From the IMG/VR virus record IMGVR_UViG_3300027896_005002, positions 59,488-123,487 of that record: a stretch of DNA of 64,000 nt; one strand, 5' to 3'. The notes beneath the pieces are model-generated. The model was not told the DNA's origin. It searched no databases and saw nothing but the letters and a program-made list of their open reading frames with translations. This DNA comes from a virus. The position numbers and the translations under genes are program-made. Positions 6,298-30,307 of this stretch are shown here, piece by piece (position 1 is the stretch's first letter; each line of letters begins with the position of its first letter).

Positions 6298-7017
6298 CTA
6301 AATTTCTATGATATCTTCATATAAAATAGTAAAATTATCTATAACAACATTAGCATGGAAATGTCCACAAAAATATTTTTTAAATTGAATTCTATTACAA
6401 ACTTCATCTAAAAATTTTGCAGTAGGATCTAAATATTTACTATAATCATGATCATCCATCTCAATAATGTCAACACCTGAAGCTATCATAAATTTTGCAA
6501 TCATTCCTTGCGGTAATGTATGAGCTATTATATAATCTACTTTATTTCCATGTATTTCTAAATTAGTTATTGCATAATCCATTTCTTTATAAGAAGGTAT
6601 CTCATTCCTCCAAATACTTACACCTTCAATTCGACTAGCATCATCAACACTTTTTGCACCGCCCATACAAAAAAATGTTTTACTCTCAATCGTATATATC
6701 TCACCACGCTTTAAATAAAAAATACTATCAGATACTACACCAACTTTACCACCAAATTTTTCAATAATTGGCAACTCTGCTAATCTATCATGATTTTCAT
6801 GATTACCATCAATAAAAAGTATGGTAAATGGTTTTTCATTTAACCATTTTTTCCAATAAATTTCTTCTTTATCTGGTTCGTAAAACCATAACAAACCAAA
6901 ATCACCGGTAATTATCACATAATCATTTTTAGTAAGAGATTTACCTTGAGGAAAATTTGTAGTATTTAATTTCCGAATATCTATCGGAATATGTGTGTCA
7001 CCAGTTATATAAATCAT
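6298..7017 (-). CDS. calcineurin-like metallophosphoesterase (candidate 3'-phosphatase/2',3'-cyclic phosphodiesterase)
   Basis: GDTH, GDFG, GNHEN metallophosphatase motifs in canonical order. Confidence 0.65.
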   Translation of the reverse strand: MIYITGDTHIPIDIRKLNTTNFPQGKSLTKNDYVIITGDFGLLWFYEPDKEEIYWKKWLNEKPFTILFIDGNHENHDRLAELPIIEKFGGKVGVVSDSIFYLKRGEIYTIESKTFFCMGGAKSVDDASRIEGVSIWRNEIPSYKEMDYAITNLEIHGNKVDYIIAHTLPQGMIAKFMIASGVDIIEMDDHDYSKYLDPTAKFLDEVCNRIQFKKYFCGHFHANVVIDNFTILYEDIIEI

Positions 7018-7847
7018 ATCTCTATTTCATATAAATTACTAGGAAAACATGGACAAATATCATAGGGACAAATTATTGCTTTATTACTTAATTGACTCTC
7101 GACAGTTAAATTTTGTACAAATATATTTCCTAAATAACGATGACTACCCCAACATTCTCTAACAGTACCATCATTAAGTACTATCATATACTTATAGCCA
7201 GCCACACATACTTGACCTTTTCTACAAGTTGTTCTATTATATTCTAAAGAAAATTTATTATATCCATGCTCTTTACACAATTCCAAATAATGTTGTATTT
7301 TTAATAACTGTTCATCAGTATAATTAAACTTATGCCATAAAGAATTTTTTATCAAGAGAGGTATTAAATATATATTCTTACTTAAAAACCATTCAAACAA
7401 TTCATCATATTGTAATAATGCATAATCATCACAGACTTGCACTAACATAACATAAAAGCCTGCATCTTTTAATTTATTAATCTGCGTAACAATTTGTTCT
7501 CTTTTAAAATGCAGTCTATCTCTTTCTTTAATATGTAATGCTGCCATAATAAATTTAACTCGATCGACTGATACATTTTTAATAAAATCATCAACAGAAA
7601 TTGTTAAATTAGTATATAACGTAATACAATGCTGTTCAGTCAAAAATTTACAAATTTTAACAAAATCAGTATTTAAAAATAATTCTCCTCCAGACAATGC
7701 CCATAAACATTGATTTTTAAATCTACTTATAGCTTTTTTTACTTCATCAAATTTAGGCCCTAATGCACTTTTATCTTTCGGATCGTTAATACAATATTCA
7801 CAATTAAAATTACAAATCCTATTAAAATTCCAGTCTATAGTTAACAT
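7014..7847 (-). CDS. radical SAM enzyme with C-terminal Cys-rich auxiliary-cluster-like region
   Basis: CNFNCEYC = CX3CX2C; SGGE motif; C-terminal CRKGQVCVAGY...ECWGSH...ICPYDICPC; start overlaps stop of upstream peptide gene. Confidence 0.6.
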   Translation of the reverse strand: MLTIDWNFNRICNFNCEYCINDPKDKSALGPKFDEVKKAISRFKNQCLWALSGGELFLNTDFVKICKFLTEQHCITLYTNLTISVDDFIKNVSVDRVKFIMAALHIKERDRLHFKREQIVTQINKLKDAGFYVMLVQVCDDYALLQYDELFEWFLSKNIYLIPLLIKNSLWHKFNYTDEQLLKIQHYLELCKEHGYNKFSLEYNRTTCRKGQVCVAGYKYMIVLNDGTVRECWGSHRYLGNIFVQNLTVESQLSNKAIICPYDICPCFPSNLYEIEI

Positions 7848-7990
7848 TTATTTTCCTTCACTTCAACACATTCTGCTTTTAACCTTGCAGCTTTTGGACA
7901 CTTTCCGCATTCACTGCATCTTTCATGCGGTTTTGCTCCACCACATTCGTGTCGCATACTACAATGATCTTTTTTATTACAAATTACCAT
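7841..7990 (-). CDS. 49-aa Cys-rich peptide (8 Cys), translationally coupled to radical SAM gene
   Basis: Manual translation MVICNKKDHCSMRHECGGAKPHERCSECGKCPKAARLKAECVEVKENKC; its stop TAA overlaps rSAM ATG (atgttaa context). Confidence 0.35.
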   Translation of the reverse strand: MVICNKKDHCSMRHECGGAKPHERCSECGKCPKAARLKAECVEVKENKC

Positions 7991-7998
7991 ATTTTCCC

Positions 7999-8130
7999 TT
8001 ATGAATGATTATAATGTTTTTTACATTCTTCAGACCCTTCACCACGATTACAATAACCTTTCATATAACAATTTTCACATAAAGGTACTTTCTCTTTTTT
8101 CACAGATTGAGAAATTTGTCGTTCCAACAT
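7999..8130 (-). CDS. 43-aa Cys-rich peptide
   Basis: Manual translation MLERQISQSVKKEKVPLCENCYMKGYCNRGEGSEECKKHYNHS; CxxC-x5-C-x8-C. Confidence 0.3.
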   Translation of the reverse strand: MLERQISQSVKKEKVPLCENCYMKGYCNRGEGSEECKKHYNHS

Positions 8131-8151
8131 TAAAGTATATCTCTTAAATAT

Positions 8152-8230
8152 GCCCGTGATTGGAATCGAACCAACATTTTCAGCTTCCTTTACGATTATC
8201 TGTTTAGGAAACAGACTCGGCTACACGGGC
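8152..8230 (-). tRNA. noncanonical tRNA-like gene, anticodon CCU (Arg/AGG), D-arm reduced to gccgag
   Basis: acceptor gcccgtg/cacgggc, perfect anticodon arm tctgt-ttcctaa-acaga, 23-nt region taatcgtaaaggaagctgaaaat, T-arm gttgg-ttcgatt-ccaat; no D-stem partner. Confidence 0.45.
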
Positions 8231-8233
8231 GCT

Positions 8234-9142
8234 CTAATGTTCTATGTGTGTAATTTGAATATCTTCTTTATTTATTTCAGCTGAATATTCTATTCCACAA
8301 TTAATACTATTCATAGGAATCGGTCTGTCTGCTAATGGATTATGAATAAAAATAAAATCATTTCCTAATATTTTATCAGTTGAGCTAATATTTGCATATG
8401 AGTAAATTACTCCACTTATATGAGAATATTGTAAATCAAGAAAATAATCTGTCTTAACAGGTTCATTTGATGATTTTTTAAAAATTTTATTACGATTTTC
8501 ACATGTTTGTCTAACAATTTTAGAACTAACTTTATCAATATGAATGACTACATTACCAACTGCTAAAAGAGCGGCTACACATTGCGGCACACCGCCTTCA
8601 ATATACAATGGTATACCATTTAAACCCTCAAGCCATCCACCACTAATGCAAATTATAGTACTTTGCACATTTTTGATTATACCATTTTCAATATCATGCC
8701 GAATTTTTTTTGCTTTTTCAGTAAAACTATTCGTATATCTTAGAATAATTTGGTTTTGCGGGTAATCCATGATACCATTGTAATTCGTTTTTGGAATAGA
8801 ATCTGGATTGTCTTTTTTTCCATCTGACATAGTAACTACTTCTATCCAACAATTTAAATTTTCAACAAATAAATCCGGACCTTTATCTGATGGATGAGAA
8901 ACATTGAATAACAATCGCTTTCTAAAAACTGTAGCAAAATAAAGTTCACTATAGCGAGCAGCAAAATCATGTTTCAACTGTGTTTTAAAAGTTTTGTCAA
9001 CTAAATCATGTGATATCTCATACAATTTCTCTACTCGATCACTAAATAACACACATAAATCAGGCGGAAAACCTCCTTGACCTCCTTGAATTTTATTATA
9101 TAAAGGATCAGTTGCAGATGGATCTGGATTTAATAATGTCAT
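8234..9142 (-). CDS. hypothetical protein (302 aa) bracketed by two related tRNA-like genes
   Basis: ORF track; no recognised motif. Confidence 0.3.
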   Translation of the reverse strand: MTLLNPDPSATDPLYNKIQGGQGGFPPDLCVLFSDRVEKLYEISHDLVDKTFKTQLKHDFAARYSELYFATVFRKRLLFNVSHPSDKGPDLFVENLNCWIEVVTMSDGKKDNPDSIPKTNYNGIMDYPQNQIILRYTNSFTEKAKKIRHDIENGIIKNVQSTIICISGGWLEGLNGIPLYIEGGVPQCVAALLAVGNVVIHIDKVSSKIVRQTCENRNKIFKKSSNEPVKTDYFLDLQYSHISGVIYSYANISSTDKILGNDFIFIHNPLADRPIPMNSINCGIEYSAEINKEDIQITHIEH

Positions 9143-9169
9143 TTTAATCTTTGTATTCTAAAATAAATA

Positions 9170-9252
9170 TGGCGCCCGTGATTCGATTCGAACGAACATT
9201 TTCAGCTCCAATTACGATTAACTGCTTAGAAGGCAGTCTCGGCTACACGGGC
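9170..9252 (-). tRNA. noncanonical tRNA-like gene, anticodon UCU (Arg/AGA), D-arm reduced, CCA encoded
   Basis: acceptor gcccgtg/cacgggc-g-CCA, anticodon arm actgc-cttctaa-gcagt, then taatcgtaattggagctgaaaat, T-arm gttcg-ttcgaat-cgaat; same architecture as 8152-8230. Confidence 0.45.
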
Positions 9253-9337
9253 TTAATTTCTTAAAATCAAAAAAACTATTGTTATCCTTTTAATCAACTA
9301 ATAAAACAAAGTTTTAAATAACATATAATAAAAAAAT

Positions 9338-10129
9338 ATGGGTACTTCACAAGGTAACTTCAAAAGAAAACTTACTGGATTTTATGATAATGAAGATCGA
9401 AAAAAACAATGGAGTCAAGCTAGAATTAATACAAACAAAAATTCGGTCATTCTTAATCATAAAAAAACAATTCAGCAATTAACAAAATTAAAAATTAATG
9501 TTCAATGGTTTGAACTACAATTGCAACAACATCGTATTACCACAATTACTAAAAATTTAAAATTACTTGACATTAAACATCCAAAACTAGCACTTAAATA
9601 TTTAAAATCTTTATTAGAGCCAAAACGATTAAAAGAAATTGCAAAAGAAAAACGAACATCTAAAACATCTGTCACACTTAAAAATCGATTGAGAACTGAT
9701 ATCATACTGAAAAAGAAATATATTAAAAATCTAACAAAGAGAAATCATCATAAATATCGATCAAAAGGTGAATTACGTCTCAAACATTGGTTACAAAAAA
9801 CTTATCCTTACTATAATTGGAAAAGTATACATTTAACTTATAACAATTCAATTTATGAATTCGATATCTATTCAGAACAATATGACGATTTTTTCATTGA
9901 ATATAACGGCGCTTGTCATTATAAACAAATTCATAGTTTAGAAAACTTTCAGCGTATTCAATGTCGAGATGAACAAAAAATACAAATAATGAAAGAACTT
10001 AATAAAGAATTTCTAATCATCAAGGACAGCATGTCCTTTGAAGAACAAACAAAAACTGTGACAAAATTCTTTAATTTAAGTAGTAATCTTCAAATTAAAA
10101 AATTGGAGGTGCGGGGACACTTTATCTGA
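9338..10129 (+). CDS. homing-endonuclease-like protein with DUF559/Vsr-like C-terminal domain
   Basis: IYEFDIYSEQYDDFFIEYNGACHY...QCRDEQKIQIMKELNKEFLII fits the DF...iEydG..H...rD....l...G pattern; N-terminal KxLK repeats as in 1521-2498 and 25526-27031. Confidence 0.5.
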   Translation: MGTSQGNFKRKLTGFYDNEDRKKQWSQARINTNKNSVILNHKKTIQQLTKLKINVQWFELQLQQHRITTITKNLKLLDIKHPKLALKYLKSLLEPKRLKEIAKEKRTSKTSVTLKNRLRTDIILKKKYIKNLTKRNHHKYRSKGELRLKHWLQKTYPYYNWKSIHLTYNNSIYEFDIYSEQYDDFFIEYNGACHYKQIHSLENFQRIQCRDEQKIQIMKELNKEFLIIKDSMSFEEQTKTVTKFFNLSSNLQIKKLEVRGHFI

Positions 10130-10134
10130 TGTTT

Positions 10135-10940
10135 TCACACCAGTGTGGACTATCTCTTCATCCAATTGGATGATGGGCGCTAATAAAGGATTATTGATTG
10201 AGTTTCTCACCTTTTAGTCTCTGCACTTTCCAACCTACAAAACACTCTTTCAGTTGGCTTAGCTCAGGATTGCCATATCATTTTACTGATTTAGGGTTCC
10301 CTGAATTCACCCATTTTCTTCATCAATTGTTACCAATTGAGTCAACCATTTTGATTGAACCCCGGTCCAGAAAGTTTTCCATGACAATTACTACATGTTT
10401 ATTCTATTCTATCTTGAATACTCACTCCGTAAATAGACAAGCGTTCAATGAGTACTTCGTAAGTGTCACTTCGGTCCCCTTCTCTTTTACGCGTTCGGTT
10501 GTCCTATCCGTATATAAACAGTTCAAGTTGCTACGGCTCCGCTTAAACTTCGACCGCCTTTATTTAGGCAGCCATTGCTGGTGCCTTTGCGCACATTGCA
10601 GCGAACTGCAATGCGAACTGAGCACCGAAAACTGAACCAATTTTGTTGGCAGTTGTTGTTTCATTGGATGATTTAAGAGGCCAACCAATGAGTCCTCTAC
10701 ATGCAATTATCACTTCACCCAATCTGTCGAAACCTGACACCCCCATAATTTCAAAGAACATTAAATCTGGCTGCCGTGCCGCAGCCACCGTTTCATCGAA
10801 TAGGTACTTACCATGGCTATTCGCTATCCTCTACAATGATGCCGAAGCACTAACCACGACACGTCAAGCCAAAGGTATCATATGGTCTCAGCTTGACCGT
10901 CCCTGTGACAAGAGCAAAGGTCGTTAATCATGTCGCCATA
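10135..10940 (-). ncRNA. large GC-rich structured RNA; group I intron-like core (P7/P8/P9) at its 3' end on the minus strand; exon context unresolved
   Basis: Minus-strand motifs gtgCAGAGACUAaaagg ... gaAGAGAUAGUCCacacuggugug resemble P7 5'/3' strands (GACUA/UAGUC) of IC3 introns; many perfect hairpins (ggctgc-ggcacg-gcagcc; cattgcag-ttcg-ctgcaatg); GC about 45% vs 30% flank; listed ORFs inside are weak. Confidence 0.4.
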
Positions 10941-10953
10941 TGACTTATCAAAT

Positions 10954-11508
10954 TCACATTTTCTCTTTAACAAATATTTTTGCAATGTTATAAGCGTCAT
11001 CAACACCTCTGTGATGACGACCTTCAAGAGGAATATCTAACATTGTTAAAGCTTTATCCATTCCTATAGGTTTTATTTTATGCCTCTCAGCAAATTCATG
11101 TTTAAGACTTCTACTAATTTTAAATGGTACTTCAATATCATATCTTTTACAATCTTTAGCTAACTGTCGATGATCATAGAAGCCCCAAGAACAAAATATA
11201 AAATTACTTAAACTTTTCTCTGTTATTAAATAAACATTTTCTCGCCAAATATCCATTACAGTTCTAAAATCTTTTGCAATATCTATGGTAAATTGTTCAA
11301 TACCGGTCAGTCGTCTACAAAAATCTGATAACATCGGATTCAATTGTGGTTTAACAAATAAACCTTGTGATAAAATTATGCGATAATCATCAGTAACAAT
11401 TGAATAACCAATTTCAATTATTTCATTTTCATTTCGATTTGCTTTTACTCGACCTTCATTAGTATTTCTATCCCAACAAGTTGCTTCAAAATCTACTATT
11501 AAATACAT
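10954..11508 (-). CDS. DEDDh-family 3'-5' exonuclease (ERI-1/RNase T-like)
   Basis: YLIVDFEATCW motif I (DxE), later ...HRGVDDAYNIA motif III (H...D). Confidence 0.55.
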   Translation of the reverse strand: MYLIVDFEATCWDRNTNEGRVKANRNENEIIEIGYSIVTDDYRIILSQGLFVKPQLNPMLSDFCRRLTGIEQFTIDIAKDFRTVMDIWRENVYLITEKSLSNFIFCSWGFYDHRQLAKDCKRYDIEVPFKISRSLKHEFAERHKIKPIGMDKALTMLDIPLEGRHHRGVDDAYNIAKIFVKEKM

Positions 11509-12885: not shown

Positions 12886-12958
12886 GGGACTGGTAGGAGT
12901 CGAACCTACGACCTCAACTTTGTAAGAGTTGCATTCTGTACCACTGAAATACAGTCCC
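12886..12958 (-). tRNA. tRNA-Val (anticodon UAC)
   Basis: acceptor gggactg/cagtccc, anticodon arm caact-cttacaa-agttg, T-arm gtagg-ttcgact-cctac. Confidence 0.7.
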
Positions 12959-13949
12959 GATTATTCAAATTTTTAAATTCTCTTACTAAATGTGACATTC
13001 TAGTTGTACTAGTTTGCCACTTATTTGCTAATCTAGAAATTAAACCATATTCATTTATATCTATAACCATAGCTAATTCAACAAAAATTTGTTTTTTCTT
13101 ATTTAAACGTTGTGATTCACACGGTGACAATTTTTTAATATTATTAATTTTAAAAAATCGACTTAATTGTCTTTCAGATATAGCAAGCTTACTAGCAATT
13201 GTTTTATTATCTAATCCTTCATCAACTAATTGAATTATTTCTTTTGCTTTATTAGAAACATCATTAATTACAATTTCTTTTTGTAATTTAATTTCATTTG
13301 TAACATTTAAGCTTTTTGTTTCTAAAAATTGTTTTAATTGATTAATAACTGTGTCAAAATTTTTACAAATAGCTCTAGCATGAATATTTATTACCTTCCA
13401 ACCTCTTTCAATAATATATTTTTCACGATCAACATAATAAGATTTTAGTTCATTATTAAAATAATGAGCATTGCCATTGACTTCTATATCAATTTTTAAA
13501 TTTATTATTGCAAAATCCATTCTATAATTTCTGTCAAAATCATCTGGTGTATATTCTTGAATAATTTTTTCATCAACATTACATTCTAACCATTGTCTTA
13601 ATATTTTCTCAGGATATGTTTCTTTTTTCTTTCGCCAAGGATGATTTATTCTAGTTTTTAACCACTTTGATGTACTTTTTGACAATCGTTTTTTAGATTC
13701 TTCTGTATGTTGAACTGGATATTTCTTTCTAGCTAATATCATTGCTTCACTTAAATTACGTCTATTTTTAATTGCAAGTTTTGTAATAAATCTTGGAAAA
13801 CGACCTAAATGTCTTATTTCTCGCAATGATAAACCATTTTTATAATACAATTCTTTTACTTTATCGATGTCATCTTTAGTTACACATTTATGATTTGTAA
13901 ATGCACCATTATTTGTAAAAGATCTATTACATTTTTGACATTTTATCAT
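12906..13949 (-). CDS. homing-endonuclease-like protein (Zn finger + HTH repeats + DUF559/Vsr-like nuclease)
   Basis: MIKCQKCNRS Zn finger; DFDRNYRMDFAIINLKIDIEVNGNAHY...DREKYIIERGWKVINI; C-terminal overlap with tRNA-Val. Confidence 0.55.
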   Translation of the reverse strand: MIKCQKCNRSFTNNGAFTNHKCVTKDDIDKVKELYYKNGLSLREIRHLGRFPRFITKLAIKNRRNLSEAMILARKKYPVQHTEESKKRLSKSTSKWLKTRINHPWRKKKETYPEKILRQWLECNVDEKIIQEYTPDDFDRNYRMDFAIINLKIDIEVNGNAHYFNNELKSYYVDREKYIIERGWKVINIHARAICKNFDTVINQLKQFLETKSLNVTNEIKLQKEIVINDVSNKAKEIIQLVDEGLDNKTIASKLAISERQLSRFFKINNIKKLSPCESQRLNKKKQIFVELAMVIDINEYGLISRLANKWQTSTTRMSHLVREFKNLNNRDCISVVQNATLTKLRS

Positions 13950-15908: not shown

Positions 15909-16256
15909 CTATATATCTATAGCGAGGACCATCTTTTGTGTAAATTATTTCATGATCCCGTGCATATTTTTTATCTGCTCTCAATCGTAAAAGTTCGATT
16001 TTATAATGACATGTTAAACAATTTTTCATAATAATGTTGTTCCCATAACCAGGCTTCTGTTTTATCTCTACATTTGTCTAAGCCCTCGACCCGTCCGTCA
16101 TAGCGTTGCTCACCCGCTAGGACTGTTTGAGGTTGCACCCTCGGAAGTGTAAACGACCAATTAAGTCTCCTTCCTTAAGCAATAGTGGCCTGAGTTTCCT
16201 CACCGATAATCTAATATCATCGGCGCGTAGAGTCGGAACAACATTTTGAATCAAAA

Positions 16257-16339
16257 GCTGGAGGAGAGATTTGAACTCCCGACGGTGTTTCCACTCCGGA
16301 TTACAAATCCGGTGCACTCGACCACTATGCGACTCCAGC
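16257..16339 (-). tRNA. class II (long variable arm) tRNA with anticodon UGU (Thr anticodon on a Leu/Ser/Tyr-type body)
   Basis: acceptor gctggag/ctccagc, 3-bp D-stem gca/tgc, anticodon arm ccgga-tttgtaa-tccgg, 15-nt variable arm agtg-gaaa-cac-cgtc, T-arm gggag-ttcaaat-ctctc. Confidence 0.55.
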
Positions 16340-21750: not shown

Positions 21751-21777
21751 TTAAGGCCTATCATCACATTAAAAAAT

Positions 21778-21857
21778 AGGAGAGGAGGGATTTGAACCCT
21801 CATCTGCCACATACCGTTACGATTATCCGCCTTATAAGAGCGGCTCGGTACTCTCCT
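21778..21857 (-). tRNA. noncanonical tRNA-like gene, anticodon UAU (Ile/AUA), reduced D-arm; same architecture as 8152-8230 and 9170-9252
   Basis: acceptor aggagag/ctctcct, ta-ccgag, anticodon arm ccgct-cttataa-ggcgg, ataatcgtaacggtatgtggcagat, T-arm gaggg-ttcaaat-ccctc. Confidence 0.45.
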
Positions 21858-23591: not shown

Positions 23592-24443
23592 TTATTTCTC
23601 AAATTTATAATAAAAAAACCAACCATTAGCGGATTTTCGTGTACCTTTTAATACTGTTATAATATTTGATGGATAAGTATTTAATTGCTTAGCTGCTTGT
23701 TTTTTGTTCGAAAATTCTAATTTTTGACCATTTTTTACAGCAAAAAATATTTTTCTCTTAAGTTGTTCAACAAAATCATCATACATTTTTTTAGTTATAT
23801 ACTTAAAAGAAAATATCCAATTATTTTTAGATTTAACTTTTCCATGCAAAATACAACTAATAAACCTTTGACTAACCTTAGTATAAATAGATGCTTCGTA
23901 TTGTGTTTTAAATTTCTTTAATTCATTAACATTTCTTGCATAAAAAGCTTTTCCACCATGACACTTACTATGCTTAATTCTTTCTTCAATTTTATTAAAC
24001 CTTTTATTCTGAGATTTACCCTGTTTTTTTCTGGCTTTATCTGACTTAAAATAATTTATTAAACCCAAACTTAAATTTTTTCGTGCTTCTAAATTAAACT
24101 TTCCATTACTTCCGCCTTCTTTTAAATTATATCCAAAAGTTTTATTAGTACTATTAAACTTTTTAATATATTCTTTTTCTTTTTTATCAAGTTCTAATTG
24201 TGTATTGCATTTACATAATATGTCCCAAGTAAATTTATCAAAACCATATTTCATTAAAGCATTATGAAAATATGATTGATTTTTTGGCTTTTTTATTAAA
24301 CTTTTCAAACAAACTCGATGATGAGCTTTAATTCTACCTTGTAATGATCGCCATGTTTGACCAATATACACTTTATTTGTTAAAATATTTGTAGCTTTAT
24401 AAATGATACTTTGTTCATACAAGTATTCATCTAAAATATTCAT
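23592..24443 (-). CDS. GIY-YIG homing endonuclease
   Basis: IYKATNILTNKVYIGQT ... R...H ... GYNLKEGG = GIY-YIG catalytic motifs; basic C-terminal DNA-binding region. Confidence 0.65.
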   Translation of the reverse strand: MNILDEYLYEQSIIYKATNILTNKVYIGQTWRSLQGRIKAHHRVCLKSLIKKPKNQSYFHNALMKYGFDKFTWDILCKCNTQLELDKKEKEYIKKFNSTNKTFGYNLKEGGSNGKFNLEARKNLSLGLINYFKSDKARKKQGKSQNKRFNKIEERIKHSKCHGGKAFYARNVNELKKFKTQYEASIYTKVSQRFISCILHGKVKSKNNWIFSFKYITKKMYDDFVEQLKRKIFFAVKNGQKLEFSNKKQAAKQLNTYPSNIITVLKGTRKSANGWFFYYKFEK

Positions 24444-25495
24444 TTACCTGTCTTATCTAAGTATACTGGATCTCGTTGCTTTAAAAATAACCGGCCAAAA
24501 CCAACAATATATTTCTCTATCATCGGCTTTATCACTATGCCCTCTCTCAACCTATCGATTAATACACTCTTTCCATTTGAAGCAACTTGGACTGATCGGC
24601 CATCTAACCAATCTTTAAAGATCACATTACTCGCTATAATTGGTACAAATCTCTCTCTCAAACCAATCTTATCCAAGAGAACATCAATCTCTCCAAAATC
24701 AATAGCTTTACTATTGACTTCAATATCAAAAATCTTTATCGTATGCTTTTTCAAATTATAATAATTACCCTGTACTTTAGGCCCGATTATCTCACCCCGA
24801 ATCGTAATCGCACAATTCGGAAAATAATTGACCTTCAAATTACTCACTGCGTCTATCAAACCATCATTACGAGCGACCTGCCAAAAAGTATGCTCCTCAT
24901 GATCAGGCAAATTTATGATAGCATGACCGTGCGTGCACACGCTCATCTTATCATCTACATCAATGAAGACAGCAGCATTAGTGCCTTCTATTTTCTCAGA
25001 TATGAACACCCTCTCATTCATCAATTGCTCAACGATATCAGGATGTCTATCGCAGCCTTCAATATCATAATTATAAACCATCTCCGGTCGCTGTACCAAA
25101 TTACCAGTGCTCGTCATAACTTCTGGTGCTTCATACTTTGTCACACTCAAAGCAGCTGTTAGATCTACCGGTAAAACGTCCACCTTAAGATAAGCCTTAA
25201 CACTAGACGCAGATGTGACATATCCTTGAGAAATTTCATTTCTTAATTTACAAGTTTTAATTCTATTTTTATCTTTACCTGATAAAAAATTCTGAATATT
25301 TTGTTGTAATATAAATTCCTGAGGCAGTATAGAATCTATTGGAAAATAAACTACACTATCTCCAACTTTATATAAATCTTTTTGGACAACAAATTGATAT
25401 GTCATCCCTTCAACTTGACCAAGTTCCAATTTATCAGCATTTGGATGCGGATAAATTTTAGATATTTTTTTTACTTCCACAGCAAAAGTACTCAT
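24440..25495 (-). CDS. ATP-dependent RNA ligase (Rnl2/Rnl5-like nucleotidyltransferase core) fused to N-terminal Trbp111/CsaA-like tRNA-binding OB domain
   Basis: N-term VEVKKISKIYPHPNADKLELGQVE (tRNA-binding OB signature hPnADkL); motif I EKIEGTNAAVF (KxxG), motif IV REGIVIKP (EGxxxK), motif V LFLKQRD...K. Confidence 0.55.
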   Translation of the reverse strand: MSTFAVEVKKISKIYPHPNADKLELGQVEGMTYQFVVQKDLYKVGDSVVYFPIDSILPQEFILQQNIQNFLSGKDKNRIKTCKLRNEISQGYVTSASSVKAYLKVDVLPVDLTAALSVTKYEAPEVMTSTGNLVQRPEMVYNYDIEGCDRHPDIVEQLMNERVFISEKIEGTNAAVFIDVDDKMSVCTHGHAIINLPDHEEHTFWQVARNDGLIDAVSNLKVNYFPNCAITIRGEIIGPKVQGNYYNLKKHTIKIFDIEVNSKAIDFGEIDVLLDKIGLRERFVPIIASNVIFKDWLDGRSVQVASNGKSVLIDRLREGIVIKPMIEKYIVGFGRLFLKQRDPVYLDKTGK

Positions 25496-25525: not shown

Positions 25526-27031
25526 TCATAGTTGTGTAACAAGTTGTTTAGAAATAATTTTTTTAATCATACGTCTAGTAATTTTATATTTTTTAATTAA
25601 TACTCCAATCTTAAAACCATTTTGATAATCATTAATTATATCATTGATTCTGAATGAAACATTTCTATCACACCATCTCTTTTTAATAAAATATCCACTA
25701 TTTTTTATACTAATATTATTATCTAAAAACAATTGTTTAACCTTTTTATTCAACACATTATATTTTCTACAAATTTTACTTAATGAATTATTATTTTTAT
25801 AATCATCAATTATTTGTTTTGCAAGATCACTTGTTATTATAGTTTTTATTTTGTAAAATCGTTTTATAGTATACTTTGTATTGTACTTAATAAATCTTTT
25901 TACTTGTGTTTGTGATACATTCCATAATTTTGCAAGTATAGCAAATGTTCCACGTTTATTAATATCAACTTTTTCAAGATCATTTAATCTATTTTGACGT
26001 AATTCATTTCTTATTTTTATAATTTTACTTATTTTTTCATTTTTTCTTTTAGTAATCTCTGCTAGATTATTAAGCGCTACCAACTGTTTATCAGTATATT
26101 GTGAAATTAAAACATCTCTTTTTTCAGATGATTTAAGAATAGATTTTATTTCTTGAAACTTATCTTTTGAATTATAACAAATTGCTCGCCAACAAATTCT
26201 AAATACCGTAATATTATTTAATTTAAGCAATGCATCTTTCTTTTTATCAATTTCCTGACGTCGCTTATATCTATAATGTTGTTGACCGTCAATTTCAATA
26301 GCTAATGATAATTTAGGAAAGAAAAAATCTACTCTATAAACAGAAAAAGGAAATTCAGTATAAAAATCATCATTAAGTTTATATCCTTCATTAATTAAAA
26401 ATTTAAAAAAAGTTTTCTCAGCATATGACTGATTGTCTTGTTTATACCAAGAATTAGCTCTATTTTCAGCATGCATTATTTTACATTTTTCAGACCACTT
26501 TTTTCTTGATTCATCTGACCACTTAAAAGTATATTTTTTATGAGCTAATTTCGATGCATCTGCGACAGATCGTCTATAACATTTTAATGCAAAATGTATG
26601 AGACCTGTATCAAAACCTTGATTATGTAATTCACGCGATGATAATCCAGAATCATATAGATTACGAATTTTTATAACATCATTATCTTCATAACATTTAT
26701 GTCGTTTATAATTACCACTATTAAATGATCTATTACATTTTTTACAAATAATTTTTTTATCACTAAAACTATTTATTGCTTTTTTCCTATATATTTTAGT
26801 ATGTGCAATTTTTAATGTATCACTAGCAGTTCTTTTCAAATCTTTTATACATCTATTTATTTGATTTCGTGTATAACCTATTTGAATTATATCTTTTATT
26901 AATAATCCAGAATTATACAAATCTCTAATTTTCTGTCTATCGTTCTCAGATATCTTACAATATTTCTTATGTGAAAAAAAACTTCCAGGATTCGTAAAAA
27001 AATTACCGCAATTCTCGCAACATAATTTCAT
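25526..27031 (-). CDS. homing-endonuclease-like protein: Zn finger, multiple HTH (NUMOD-like) repeats, DUF559/Vsr-like nuclease domain
   Basis: CENCGNFF, IRDLYNSGLLIKDI / IRNLYDSGLSSREL repeats; YRVDFFFPKLSLAIEIDGQQHY...DKKKDALLKLNNITVFRI. Confidence 0.6.
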   Translation of the reverse strand: MKLCCENCGNFFTNPGSFFSHKKYCKISENDRQKIRDLYNSGLLIKDIIQIGYTRNQINRCIKDLKRTASDTLKIAHTKIYRKKAINSFSDKKIICKKCNRSFNSGNYKRHKCYEDNDVIKIRNLYDSGLSSRELHNQGFDTGLIHFALKCYRRSVADASKLAHKKYTFKWSDESRKKWSEKCKIMHAENRANSWYKQDNQSYAEKTFFKFLINEGYKLNDDFYTEFPFSVYRVDFFFPKLSLAIEIDGQQHYRYKRRQEIDKKKDALLKLNNITVFRICWRAICYNSKDKFQEIKSILKSSEKRDVLISQYTDKQLVALNNLAEITKRKNEKISKIIKIRNELRQNRLNDLEKVDINKRGTFAILAKLWNVSQTQVKRFIKYNTKYTIKRFYKIKTIITSDLAKQIIDDYKNNNSLSKICRKYNVLNKKVKQLFLDNNISIKNSGYFIKKRWCDRNVSFRINDIINDYQNGFKIGVLIKKYKITRRMIKKIISKQLVTQL

Positions 27032-27803: not shown

Positions 27804-27812
27804 GTGATAATC

Positions 27813-27890
27813 AGGAGCGAAGAGACTCGAACTCTCATTTTCAACCAAATTACAAGTATATGGTTTTGGAGACCACACTGTTACGCTCCT
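27813..27890 (-). tRNA. tRNA-like gene with good acceptor/T-arm but irregular anticodon region (undetermined)
   Basis: acceptor aggagcg/cgctcct, T-arm gagag-ttcgagt-ctctt; middle ccaaaaccatatacttgtaatttgg has no clean 5-bp/7-nt anticodon arm. Confidence 0.35.
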
Positions 27891-30180: not shown

Positions 30181-30307
30181 AAAAATTGTCTTTATTGAAT
30201 GTTCTTAATAACTTCATGTCGTAATTGGATTTTAACCAATGTCTTTAGACAAAATGTGCTGACTTATTGCACCATACGACATTGCCGATAATTTCAAAGA
30301 ACAACTT

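Follow-up and report, generated by a model that had tools for sequence, protein, structure and literature searches.

A candidate family of phage-borne tRNAs with a rewired, non-cloverleaf core

A 64,000-nt stretch of viral DNA, comprising positions 59,488 to 123,487 of IMG/VR record IMGVR_UViG_3300027896_005002 (hereafter the window, in whose own numbering coordinates are given), contains four minus-strand genes that resemble tRNA genes and leave no room for a D hairpin at its usual place. Comparison with relatives in other viruses indicates that these four genes, here called copies A to D, are probably elongator tRNA genes belonging to a widespread and mostly phage-borne family with a rewired core, in which the counterpart of the D-stem appears to enclose the anticodon arm. 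The window has a G+C content of 30.8%, and its PHROG matches, which include an RNA ligase and a phosphoribosyl pyrophosphate (PRPP) synthetase, together with the density of its tRNA genes, indicate that the source is a large phage.

Copies A and B are putative Arg tRNA genes, A with the anticodon CCU (8151..8230; 80 nt including the discriminator A; anticodon at 8208-8206) and B with UCU (9170..9252; 80 nt at 9252-9173 followed by an encoded CCA at 9172-9170; anticodon at 9230-9228). Copy C is a putative tRNA-Ile(UAU) gene (21777..21857; 81 nt; T8; discriminator A) and copy D a putative tRNA-Trp(CCA) gene (27812..27890; 79 nt; anticodon loop CTCCAAA; discriminator G). The original prediction, drawn from the letters of the window without database searches, had described three D-arm-less tRNA-like genes with a common layout at 8152-8230, 9170-9252 and 21778-21857; we re-found all three on the minus strand, with anticodons CCT, TCT and TAT, and all three are real, but the family has a fourth member in the window, copy D. 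The order of parts in A, B and C is acceptor stem, T(A), (G)CCGAG, anticodon arm, a stretch starting (A)TAATCGTAA, and a normal T arm, and the acceptor stem pairs at 7/7 positions in all four copies. The anticodon arm of these three copies has 5 bp and 7 nt, with U33 and A37; its stem, described as perfect in each, is so in A and B but has one G.U pair in C, and an encoded CCA occurs, as had been noted, in B only.

Between the acceptor and anticodon stems there are only 6-8 nt, in which a D hairpin cannot form. The Rfam tRNA model (RF00005; gathering threshold 29) scored copies A, C and D at 38.5, 39.6 and 31.2 bits, compared with 53-73 bits for the window's canonical tRNAs, and its search of the window did not report copy B even at E<=10; its alignment of copy A set 5 nt against the 15-nt D-arm positions and placed a 20-nt insertion in the variable region. 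ARAGORN, which had been suggested as a check on the genes with relaxed and armless-tRNA models, found 24 canonical tRNAs in the window; whether run as standard, with relaxed settings (-ps, -ps90) or in its mode for metazoan mitochondria, it called 0/4 of the copies. A covariance model built from 103 distinct family sequences (R1) scored copies A to D at 88.8, 94.2, 57.6 and 57.3 bits (E 1e-19 to 7e-12), against 30 bits for the best canonical tRNA of the window, and by this measure the resemblance of the four copies to the family is far beyond chance.

As no close relative of the source phage was found, our comparison rested on the RNA itself: a megablast search with window positions 7000-11000 gave no match in INPHARED, and related loci sought through the window's RNA ligase were not found either, the best tblastn matches of that protein being huge uncultured phages at ~30% identity. 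Three sequence patterns were run, the first and second against IMG/VR. The first, taken from the 5' half of the element, returned 41 complete look-alikes; the second specified the 3' part only, left the 5' half free, with columns 10-14 and 40-42 of the alignment described below unconstrained, and returned at least 120 loci; the third barred the Arg-type GGA and yielded Ile, Trp and Lys types. Run over the retrieved loci, R1 identified 204 distinct sequences at 181 viral loci of IMG/VR, so that the covariance search for the signature in other phages that had been proposed did uncover relatives. Members are 78-82 nt long. The 204 members are reported with covarying 7-bp acceptor stems, the single Lys member (locus L242) pairing at 6/7 positions; in the 103-sequence alignment this stem is 98.9% paired and shows compensatory changes at all seven pairs. 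The T stem has 5 bp and a GTTCRAnYC loop, and G53, T54, T55, C56, A58 and C61 are invariant in the family.

The strand that follows U8(A9), G-C-C-G-A, appears to form no local D hairpin. Its last three bases are predicted to pair with a TCG just 3' of the anticodon arm, lengthening that arm (helix H1), and its first two bases with a GC that lies 8-9 nt past the TCG (helix H2), which would be the D-stem counterpart. The sequence TAAnnGGA between the TCG and the GC resembles a canonical D-loop (A14, R15, two pyrimidines, G18, G19, A20) and would bulge from the 3' strand, and its R15-like base varies in concert with the final connector nucleotide, which abuts the T stem at the place of Y48 in a normal tRNA, much as the two bases of the Levitt pair 15-48 do. 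Along the RNA the parts would thus run from the 5' strand of the D-stem through H1 with the anticodon hairpin, the D-loop and the 3' strand of the D-stem to the connector and the T arm. Since H1, H2 and the Levitt-like pair all covary, the most economical secondary structure is a three-way junction in place of the four-way cloverleaf, predicted to join the acceptor stem, the T arm and a branch made up of H2, H1 and the anticodon arm, so that the D-arm would contain the anticodon arm. Within that branch the three stems would be coaxially stacked, like the D-stem on the anticodon stem of a normal tRNA; the GG would dock on the T-loop, U8 would pair with the A14-like base, and the L shape would be kept. 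The earlier statement that a 3' D-stem partner is missing is correct for the usual position, but covariation indicates that GCCGA pairs with the TCG and the GC past the anticodon arm; the description as D-arm-less does not stand, because the 23-25-nt stretch after the anticodon arm appears to supply two helices with their 3' strands and also to hold a GG-bearing D-loop look-alike and a Levitt partner.

In copy A (all on the minus strand), the 5' strand at 8217..8221 consists of the G-C of H2 (8221-8220) and the C-G-A of H1 (8219-8217), assigned by covariation of columns 10-53, 11-52, 13-41 and 14-40. It is followed by the anticodon arm TCTGT/TTCCTAA/ACAGA (8199..8215), which shows compensatory changes in the family at all five stem pairs, a TAA linker (8198-8196) and the TCG of H1 (8193..8195). 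Next come the D-loop look-alike TAAAGGAA (8185..8192), with its A14-like and R15-like bases, GG, and an A after the GG as in Arg members, the GC of H2 (8183..8184; covariation at pairs 10-53 and 11-52), the conserved 7-nt connector TGAAAAT (8176..8182), whose final T is the Y48-like Levitt partner, and the T arm GTTGG/TTCGATT/CCAAT with the acceptor 3' strand CACGGGC (8152..8175). The corresponding minus-strand parts of copy B are the H2/H1 5' strand at 9243-9239, the 3' strands of H1 and H2 at 9217-9215 and 9206-9205, the D-loop look-alike at 9214-9207 and the connector at 9204-9198. Copy C, on the same strand, has the anticodon arm CCGCT/CTTATAA/GGCGG followed by ATAA, an H2 of 5' A-C with 3' GT, an H1 of 5' CGA with 3' TCG, the D-loop look-alike TAACGGTAT and the connector GGCAGAT; in copy D, also on the minus strand, H1 reads CAG/TTG, the D-loop look-alike TAATTTGG and the connector TGAAAAT.

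The evidence for the two core helices comes from a sequence-only MAFFT alignment of 103 distinct members (A1). The scheme that we evaluated runs from the acceptor stem through U8-A9 to G10-C11, set against the GC past the GG stretch (H2), and C12-G13-A14, set against the TCG (H1), and includes the anticodon and T arms. Under it 95.7% of the cells of A1 were paired, compared with 63.8% after shuffling and 40-47% when the partners were slid by 1-3 columns. Within H2, pair 10-53 was GC in 53 sequences, AU in 46, GU in 3 and something else in 1, and pair 11-52 was CG in 98 and UG in 4; within H1, pair 12-42 was CG in 101, pair 13-41 was GC in 89 and AU in 10, with CG, UA, GU and one other combination once each, and pair 14-40 was paired in 65/103 sequences, where AU, GC, CG, UA, GU and UG all occur. 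An unbiased ranking of all column pairs by mutual information with average product correction placed model pairs exclusively in its top 19, including 10-53, 13-41 and 14-40. On a minimum spanning tree computed from the other columns, pair 10-53 switches between GC and AT on 43 of 100 edges, from which it follows that the double change arose many times and does not reflect a clade effect.

Further comparisons agree. Pair 11-52 is altered on both sides (A-T, T-A) in the Arg variants TAGACG...GGATC and TAATCG...GGATAT, and in the Ile/CAU members the second H2 pair is C-G in 20, T-A in 5 and G-C in 1, with 0 mismatches, while their H1 occurs as CGA/TCG, CAG/CTG, CGT/ACG, CGG/CCG and CAC/GTG. In the Ile-rich alignment A4, which was fitted to the model and is so biased towards the structure, columns 13-73 read CG in 27, GC in 21, AU in 11 and GU in 1, with 0 unpaired, and columns 11-87 read CG in 29, UA in 4, AU in 1 and UG in 1. 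The Levitt-like pair was A/T in 89 members, G/C in 5 and G/G in 1, with no A/C and no G/T, and on A4 AU in 56, GC in 4 and another combination in 1. Moreover, T8, A9, TAA, GG and most of TGAAAAT are unpaired yet invariant or nearly so, which argues for tertiary contacts.

Two other pairings were considered and set aside. Pairing of C11/C12 with the GG of the D-loop look-alike was rejected because, where C11 changes to A or T, it is the partner in the GC that follows (to TC or AT) with the GG unchanged, and because 10-53 strongly covaries too. A local hairpin within the 24-nt stretch shows neither complementarity nor covariation, and the mutual-information ranking of A1 contained no covarying pair inside columns 35-60 other than 54/58. 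This last pair lies in the connector and covaries in a non-Watson-Crick manner (T/A in 95 and G/G in 6, that is, TGAAAAT versus GGAAGAT); it may reflect a base triple that involves A9.

Several observations weigh against the proposed fold and its reading as an elongator tRNA. RNAalifold on A1 predicted the three classical stems only, without H1 or H2, and minimum-free-energy folds of single sequences were inconsistent, recovering H1 in copy B alone; helices as short as H1 and H2 escape thermodynamic prediction, and their support comes from covariation only. The third H1 pair is mismatched in 38/103 Arg members, and H2 is reduced or absent in copy D (<=1 pair), in Ile(GAU) members of the 78-nt type and in the copy of Microbacterium phage Pumpernickel. 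Members were found with patterns derived from the family, so that the conserved columns are partly a matter of ascertainment, although columns 10-14 and 40-42 had been left free in the second scan. Finally, the discriminator is U in 36/127 Arg members, a base that is unusual at this position in bacterial tRNA-Arg.

The anticodons of the family are TCT, ACG, TCG, CCT and GCG (Arg), GAT and TAT (Ile), CAT, CCA (Trp) and CTT (Lys), so the specificity for AGA, AGG and AUA that had been proposed for these genes does not extend to the family. Outside the window a Trp(CCA) member was found once, at locus L281, and it shares with copy D an identical acceptor stem, AGGAGCG, and has an H1 of CAG/CTG. 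Copy C has a relative at locus L252 with the same acceptor stem, H1 CGG/CCG and H2 AT/AT, which is probably its orthologue. We also considered that the fold might serve only clients of class I synthetases (Arg, Ile, Trp, Met), an idea weakened by the one Lys(CUU) member.

Copies also occur in cultured phages. They were found in T5-like Vibrio phages such as vB_VpS_PG07, in some Pseudomonas phages, in the Caulobacter phages Ccr10, Ccr2 and Ccr29, whose copies belong to an annotated tRNA cluster (Ccr10 KY555142.1 51785-51864), and in the Microbacterium phages Pumpernickel (NC_073468.1 100456-100533) and Zooman. Among the INPHARED matches listed (308 records matched), none carries a tRNA feature at the site; almost all are featureless there, and in Zooman the site lies under a hypothetical-protein coding sequence. 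ARAGORN overlooked 133/146 family members. A pattern scan of 185,579 prokaryotic genomes gave 25 matches, of which 7 were chance matches in coding sequence (a Rossmann-type motif) and 18 were real, the latter mostly on short contigs of metagenome-assembled genomes or in phage-like tRNA arrays. Two of them, both rewired tRNA-Arg(UCU) genes, sit on large contigs of isolate genomes: one in Brucella haematophila (L211; NZ_VCPE01000001.1 6519-6598; 91.8 bits), with a canonical tRNA-Gln nearby, and one in Ochrobactrum sp. CM-21-5 (L225; 7152-7231; 86.6 bits); a PHROG search of their neighbouring open reading frames (ORFs) was uninformative on a prophage or island origin. At the Ccr10 locus (L206) we noticed two further unannotated tRNA-like sequences in the same cluster. 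The one at ~1590-1665 has an Arg(CCG) anticodon loop, and its D-arm is odd, with GCC and GGC on either side of 17 loop nucleotides that include ATCGT; the one at ~1398-1470 combines an Asn(GTT) loop with an atypical D region. Several non-standard tRNAs thus seem to go unnoticed in phage tRNA clusters.

If these RNAs are elongator tRNAs, host arginyl-, isoleucyl- and tryptophanyl-tRNA synthetases (ArgRS, IleRS, TrpRS) would charge them, and AGG, AGA, AUA and UGG would be read on host ribosomes. The rewired genes are located in phage tRNA clusters, and at loci with at least three canonical tRNAs only 21/141 members share their anticodon with a canonical tRNA of the same locus; the four window anticodons are supplied by 0/24 of the window's canonical tRNAs. 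The codon count that had been suggested fits such a role: AGA makes up 306/592 Arg codons of the window (52%; 23.8 per 1000) and AUA 446/1171 Ile codons (38%; 34.6 per 1000), with UGG at 14.1 and AGG at 3.3 per 1000. In bacteria, A20 and C35 are identity elements for ArgRS, A73 for IleRS and G73 for TrpRS. An A follows the GG in 120/127 Arg members and the middle anticodon base is C in all Arg anticodons of the set; in Ile members a T follows the GG in 14/16 and A73 is present in 16/16; the Trp copy D of the window has G73. These features sort by anticodon class in a way that resembles the bacterial ArgRS, IleRS and TrpRS elements, and A37 is present in 126/127 Arg and 16/16 Ile members. Charging and decoding by the host are plausible because the E. 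coli machinery accepts a tRNA without any D-arm: HisRS, EF-Tu and the ribosome all do so, and the barrier is degradation by PNPase (PMC11551756).

The alternative that survives best, though we regard it as unlikely, is that these are tRNA-like RNAs that do not decode and serve as decoys or sponges for host anticodon nucleases or tRNA-binding defence proteins, or as processing punctuation of polycistronic transcripts. They lie in tightly packed, co-oriented transcription units, in which the ORF at 8234-9142 ends 3 nt before copy A, and phage tRNAs are reported to counter tRNA-targeting defences (PMC11555353, PMC11464382, PMC12409363). Against this reading, the anticodons are conserved as sense anticodons and serve a small number of amino acids, U33 and A37 are kept, features like those of synthetase identity sort with the anticodon, the anticodons complement those of neighbouring canonical tRNAs instead of duplicating them, and codon use fits. 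A decoy role and decoding are compatible and not mutually exclusive. Since phage tRNAs are documented as acting against tRNA-cleaving defences, it is reasonable to speculate that host factors which attack or monitor tRNAs may act poorly on the rewired RNAs because of their altered core.

A second alternative concerns copies A and B, which share 67/80 positions (84%; the earlier estimate of about 75% was too low) and the same acceptor stem, and flank one ORF in direct orientation, as had been reported, and on the same strand. On this view the two copies would be terminal direct repeats of a mobile cassette that imported the ORF and duplicated its tRNA target, and ORFs with endonuclease-like DUF559/MTES_1575 domains do occur in the tRNA region (12906-13949, 25526-27031). 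However, the repeats are exactly complete tRNA genes with different anticodons (CCU, UCU), and their likeness ends at the gene borders, the flanks being without similarity. The differences between the copies are compensatory in the anticodon stems (TCTGT/ACAGA in A, ACTGC/GCAGT in B) and the T stems (GTTGG/CCAAT, GTTCG/CGAAT), so that both have evidently been maintained as tRNAs. The ORF (8234..9142, minus strand, 302 aa) starts 27 nt past the CCA of copy B; it matches phrog_8571, which has no function assigned in PHROG (E 1.5e-9), and has no recognisable nuclease, integrase or transposase domain, no Pfam family, no significant PDB match (best E 0.05) and no tblastn match in INPHARED. ORFs, the endonuclease-like ones included, lie between tRNA genes throughout the window's cluster, and at another viral locus (L020) rewired Arg-CCU and Arg-UCU genes stand 11 nt apart without an intervening ORF. 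Insertion of the gene together with a tRNA duplication, as originally proposed, is therefore not supported, and we consider a cassette origin of the A/B repeats a little less likely still than the decoy reading; the pair has likely arisen by duplication within the genome followed by anticodon change, and the ORF lies outside the RNA family.

According to a third view, which appears improbable, the RNAs would be truly D-armless, like the tRNA-Ser of metazoan mitochondria, with an unpaired replacement for the D-arm and a long unstructured variable region. A hairpin indeed does not fit between the acceptor and anticodon stems, and the three stems of the RNAalifold prediction are what this view would expect. 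Yet the supposed replacement strand shows Watson-Crick covariation with two downstream segments, and the supposed variable region is highly conserved, with its D-loop-like TAAnnGG and covarying Levitt-like partner. Mitochondrial D-armless tRNAs have ~55-65 nt, well below the 78-82 nt of the family, and the metazoan mitochondrial mode of ARAGORN makes no call. The tolerance of E. coli translation for a D-armless tRNA (PMC11551756) speaks for this view as well.

The last possibility, that the genes are decayed or deletion pseudogenes of canonical tRNAs, to which their low Rfam scores (31-40 bits, against 53-73 for canonical window tRNAs) and the failure of ARAGORN might point, is very improbable, as 204 distinct sequences at 181 viral loci share one architecture, in which every helix shows compensatory substitutions and unpaired nucleotides are invariant, and every window copy has relatives in unrelated contigs; together with the mostly non-duplicated anticodons and the standing of AGA and AUA as major codons, this agrees with the original view that the elements are functional and not decayed, and contradicts the pseudogene alternative raised alongside it.

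The surroundings of the rewired genes hold other RNAs. Directly downstream of a tRNA-Thr gene (16256-16339) lies an RNase P RNA-like gene of ~209 nt (16035-16243, minus strand), which a local search with Rfam RF00373 scored at 61.3 bits (gathering threshold 84; E 6e-17). It keeps the catalytic-core motifs GAGGAAAcUC, GCUUAG...AAUG and ACAGAAG, with the specificity domain mostly deleted; a paper linking RNase P RNA with jumbo or huge phages was not found in the literature searched. At 10126-10737 (minus strand), a transfer-messenger RNA (tmRNA) match (RF00023, 80 bits, 10352-10737) and a group I intron match (RF00028, 91 bits, 10126-10367) overlap by 16 nt, which suggests that a self-splicing intron interrupts a tmRNA gene close to the 3' end; no tmRNA was called there by ARAGORN. 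A 66-nt tRNA-like gene at 30216-30281 (minus strand; RF00005 45.2 bits), overlooked by ARAGORN, has normal acceptor, D and T arms and an anticodon arm shortened to ~10 nt, in which 6 nt stand against 13 model positions; it is a pseudogene or else a further tRNA-like RNA of non-canonical form. Minus-strand protein genes in or by the tRNA region, at 6298-7847, 24440-25495, 12906-13949 and 25526-27031, include an RNA ligase (phrog_968, E 1e-43) and a metallophosphoesterase that adjoins a radical-SAM protein, and in the genes at 12906-13949 and 25526-27031 the endonuclease-like DUF559/MTES_1575 domains are accompanied by a helix-turn-helix; this suggests that tRNA repair functions and mobile endonucleases are interleaved with the tRNA genes.

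The proposed fold shares most of its parts with the canonical elongator tRNA of bacteria and phages (RF00005): a 7-bp acceptor stem with discriminator, a 5-bp/7-nt anticodon arm with U33 and R37, a 5-bp T stem with a GTTCRAnYC loop, U8, A14/R15-like bases, GG and a covarying pair like 15-48, as well as siting in phage tRNA clusters and isoacceptor-like features (an A behind the GG for Arg, A73 for Ile, and G73 in copy D for Trp). It differs in that the counterpart of the D-stem would enclose the anticodon arm, with a three-way instead of a four-way junction, in that the counterpart of the D-loop follows the anticodon arm on its 3' side, bulging out from between two helices, and in a 7-nt A-rich connector in place of the 4-5-nt variable loop. 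Class II tRNAs (Leu, Ser, Tyr), tRNA-Sec and nematode nev-tRNAs likewise have a long insertion between the anticodon and T arms, and GCCGAG, the 5' motif, is similar to the way a class II D-arm begins; in class II tRNAs, however, the insertion forms its own hairpin beside a normal D-arm, whereas here it would pair with the 5' strand instead. A viral tRNA-like structure (TLS) such as that of turnip yellow mosaic virus (TYMV) is the 3' end of a genome, has a pseudoknotted acceptor and does not decode; the mature product of a permuted or split tRNA gene is a canonical cloverleaf. Both arrive, as the rewired RNAs presumably do, at a tRNA-like form through non-standard strand connectivity, but a rewired gene, unlike a permuted or split one, is colinear, and its mature RNA itself would be non-cloverleaf. 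In metazoan mitochondrial D-armless tRNAs such as tRNA-Ser(AGY/UCU) and in the engineered E. coli 'mini HisT' (PMC11551756), too, the acceptor and anticodon stems are separated by only a few nucleotides, which form no D hairpin; these RNAs are, however, ~55-65 nt long, have an unpaired replacement loop and have lost the contacts between D-loop and T-loop, whereas the rewired RNAs are of normal length, appear to be paired in this region, and keep the GG and the Levitt-like pair. Allo-tRNAs with 8/4 or 9/3 arms (Mukai et al. 2017, PMC5389517) are likewise non-standard and were mined from genomes and metagenomes, some from phages; their acceptor and T lengths are altered with the four-arm cloverleaf kept, whereas the rewired family keeps 7/5 and seems to change the topology of the core.

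We found no description of this fold in the literature searched, with the conserved motif strings included in the search and most subscription journals outside its coverage. A 2020 review of non-canonical tRNAs lists no phage case, and according to a 2024 paper every bacterial tRNA known so far is a cloverleaf (PMC11551756). The chance that the fold is both truly undescribed and functional we put at about one half. The fuller picture, in which phages carry an undescribed natural, non-cloverleaf tRNA of cytosolic type that decodes Arg, Ile, Trp and occasionally Lys codons, is charged by host synthetases, is missed by standard finders and has perhaps been selected for escape from host factors, seems to us evenly balanced.

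Taken at the level of structure, the covariation points to a new structural tRNA variant that is widespread in phages and experimentally accessible. If this is true, a large natural family with another core topology working on the bacterial machinery would be an exception to the rule that known bacterial tRNAs are cloverleaves, and the unannotated copies in the cultured phages PG07, Ccr10 and Pumpernickel make the family directly testable. Because ARAGORN overlooks most members and the matching INPHARED records listed carry no tRNA feature, the family represents an annotation blind spot, in which phage tRNA repertoires and codon-usage analyses undercount Arg and Ile tRNAs. As naturally evolved alternative scaffolds, the rewired RNAs would be of interest to the design of orthogonal tRNAs, and the family bears on the arms race between phage tRNAs and the defence systems that cleave tRNAs.

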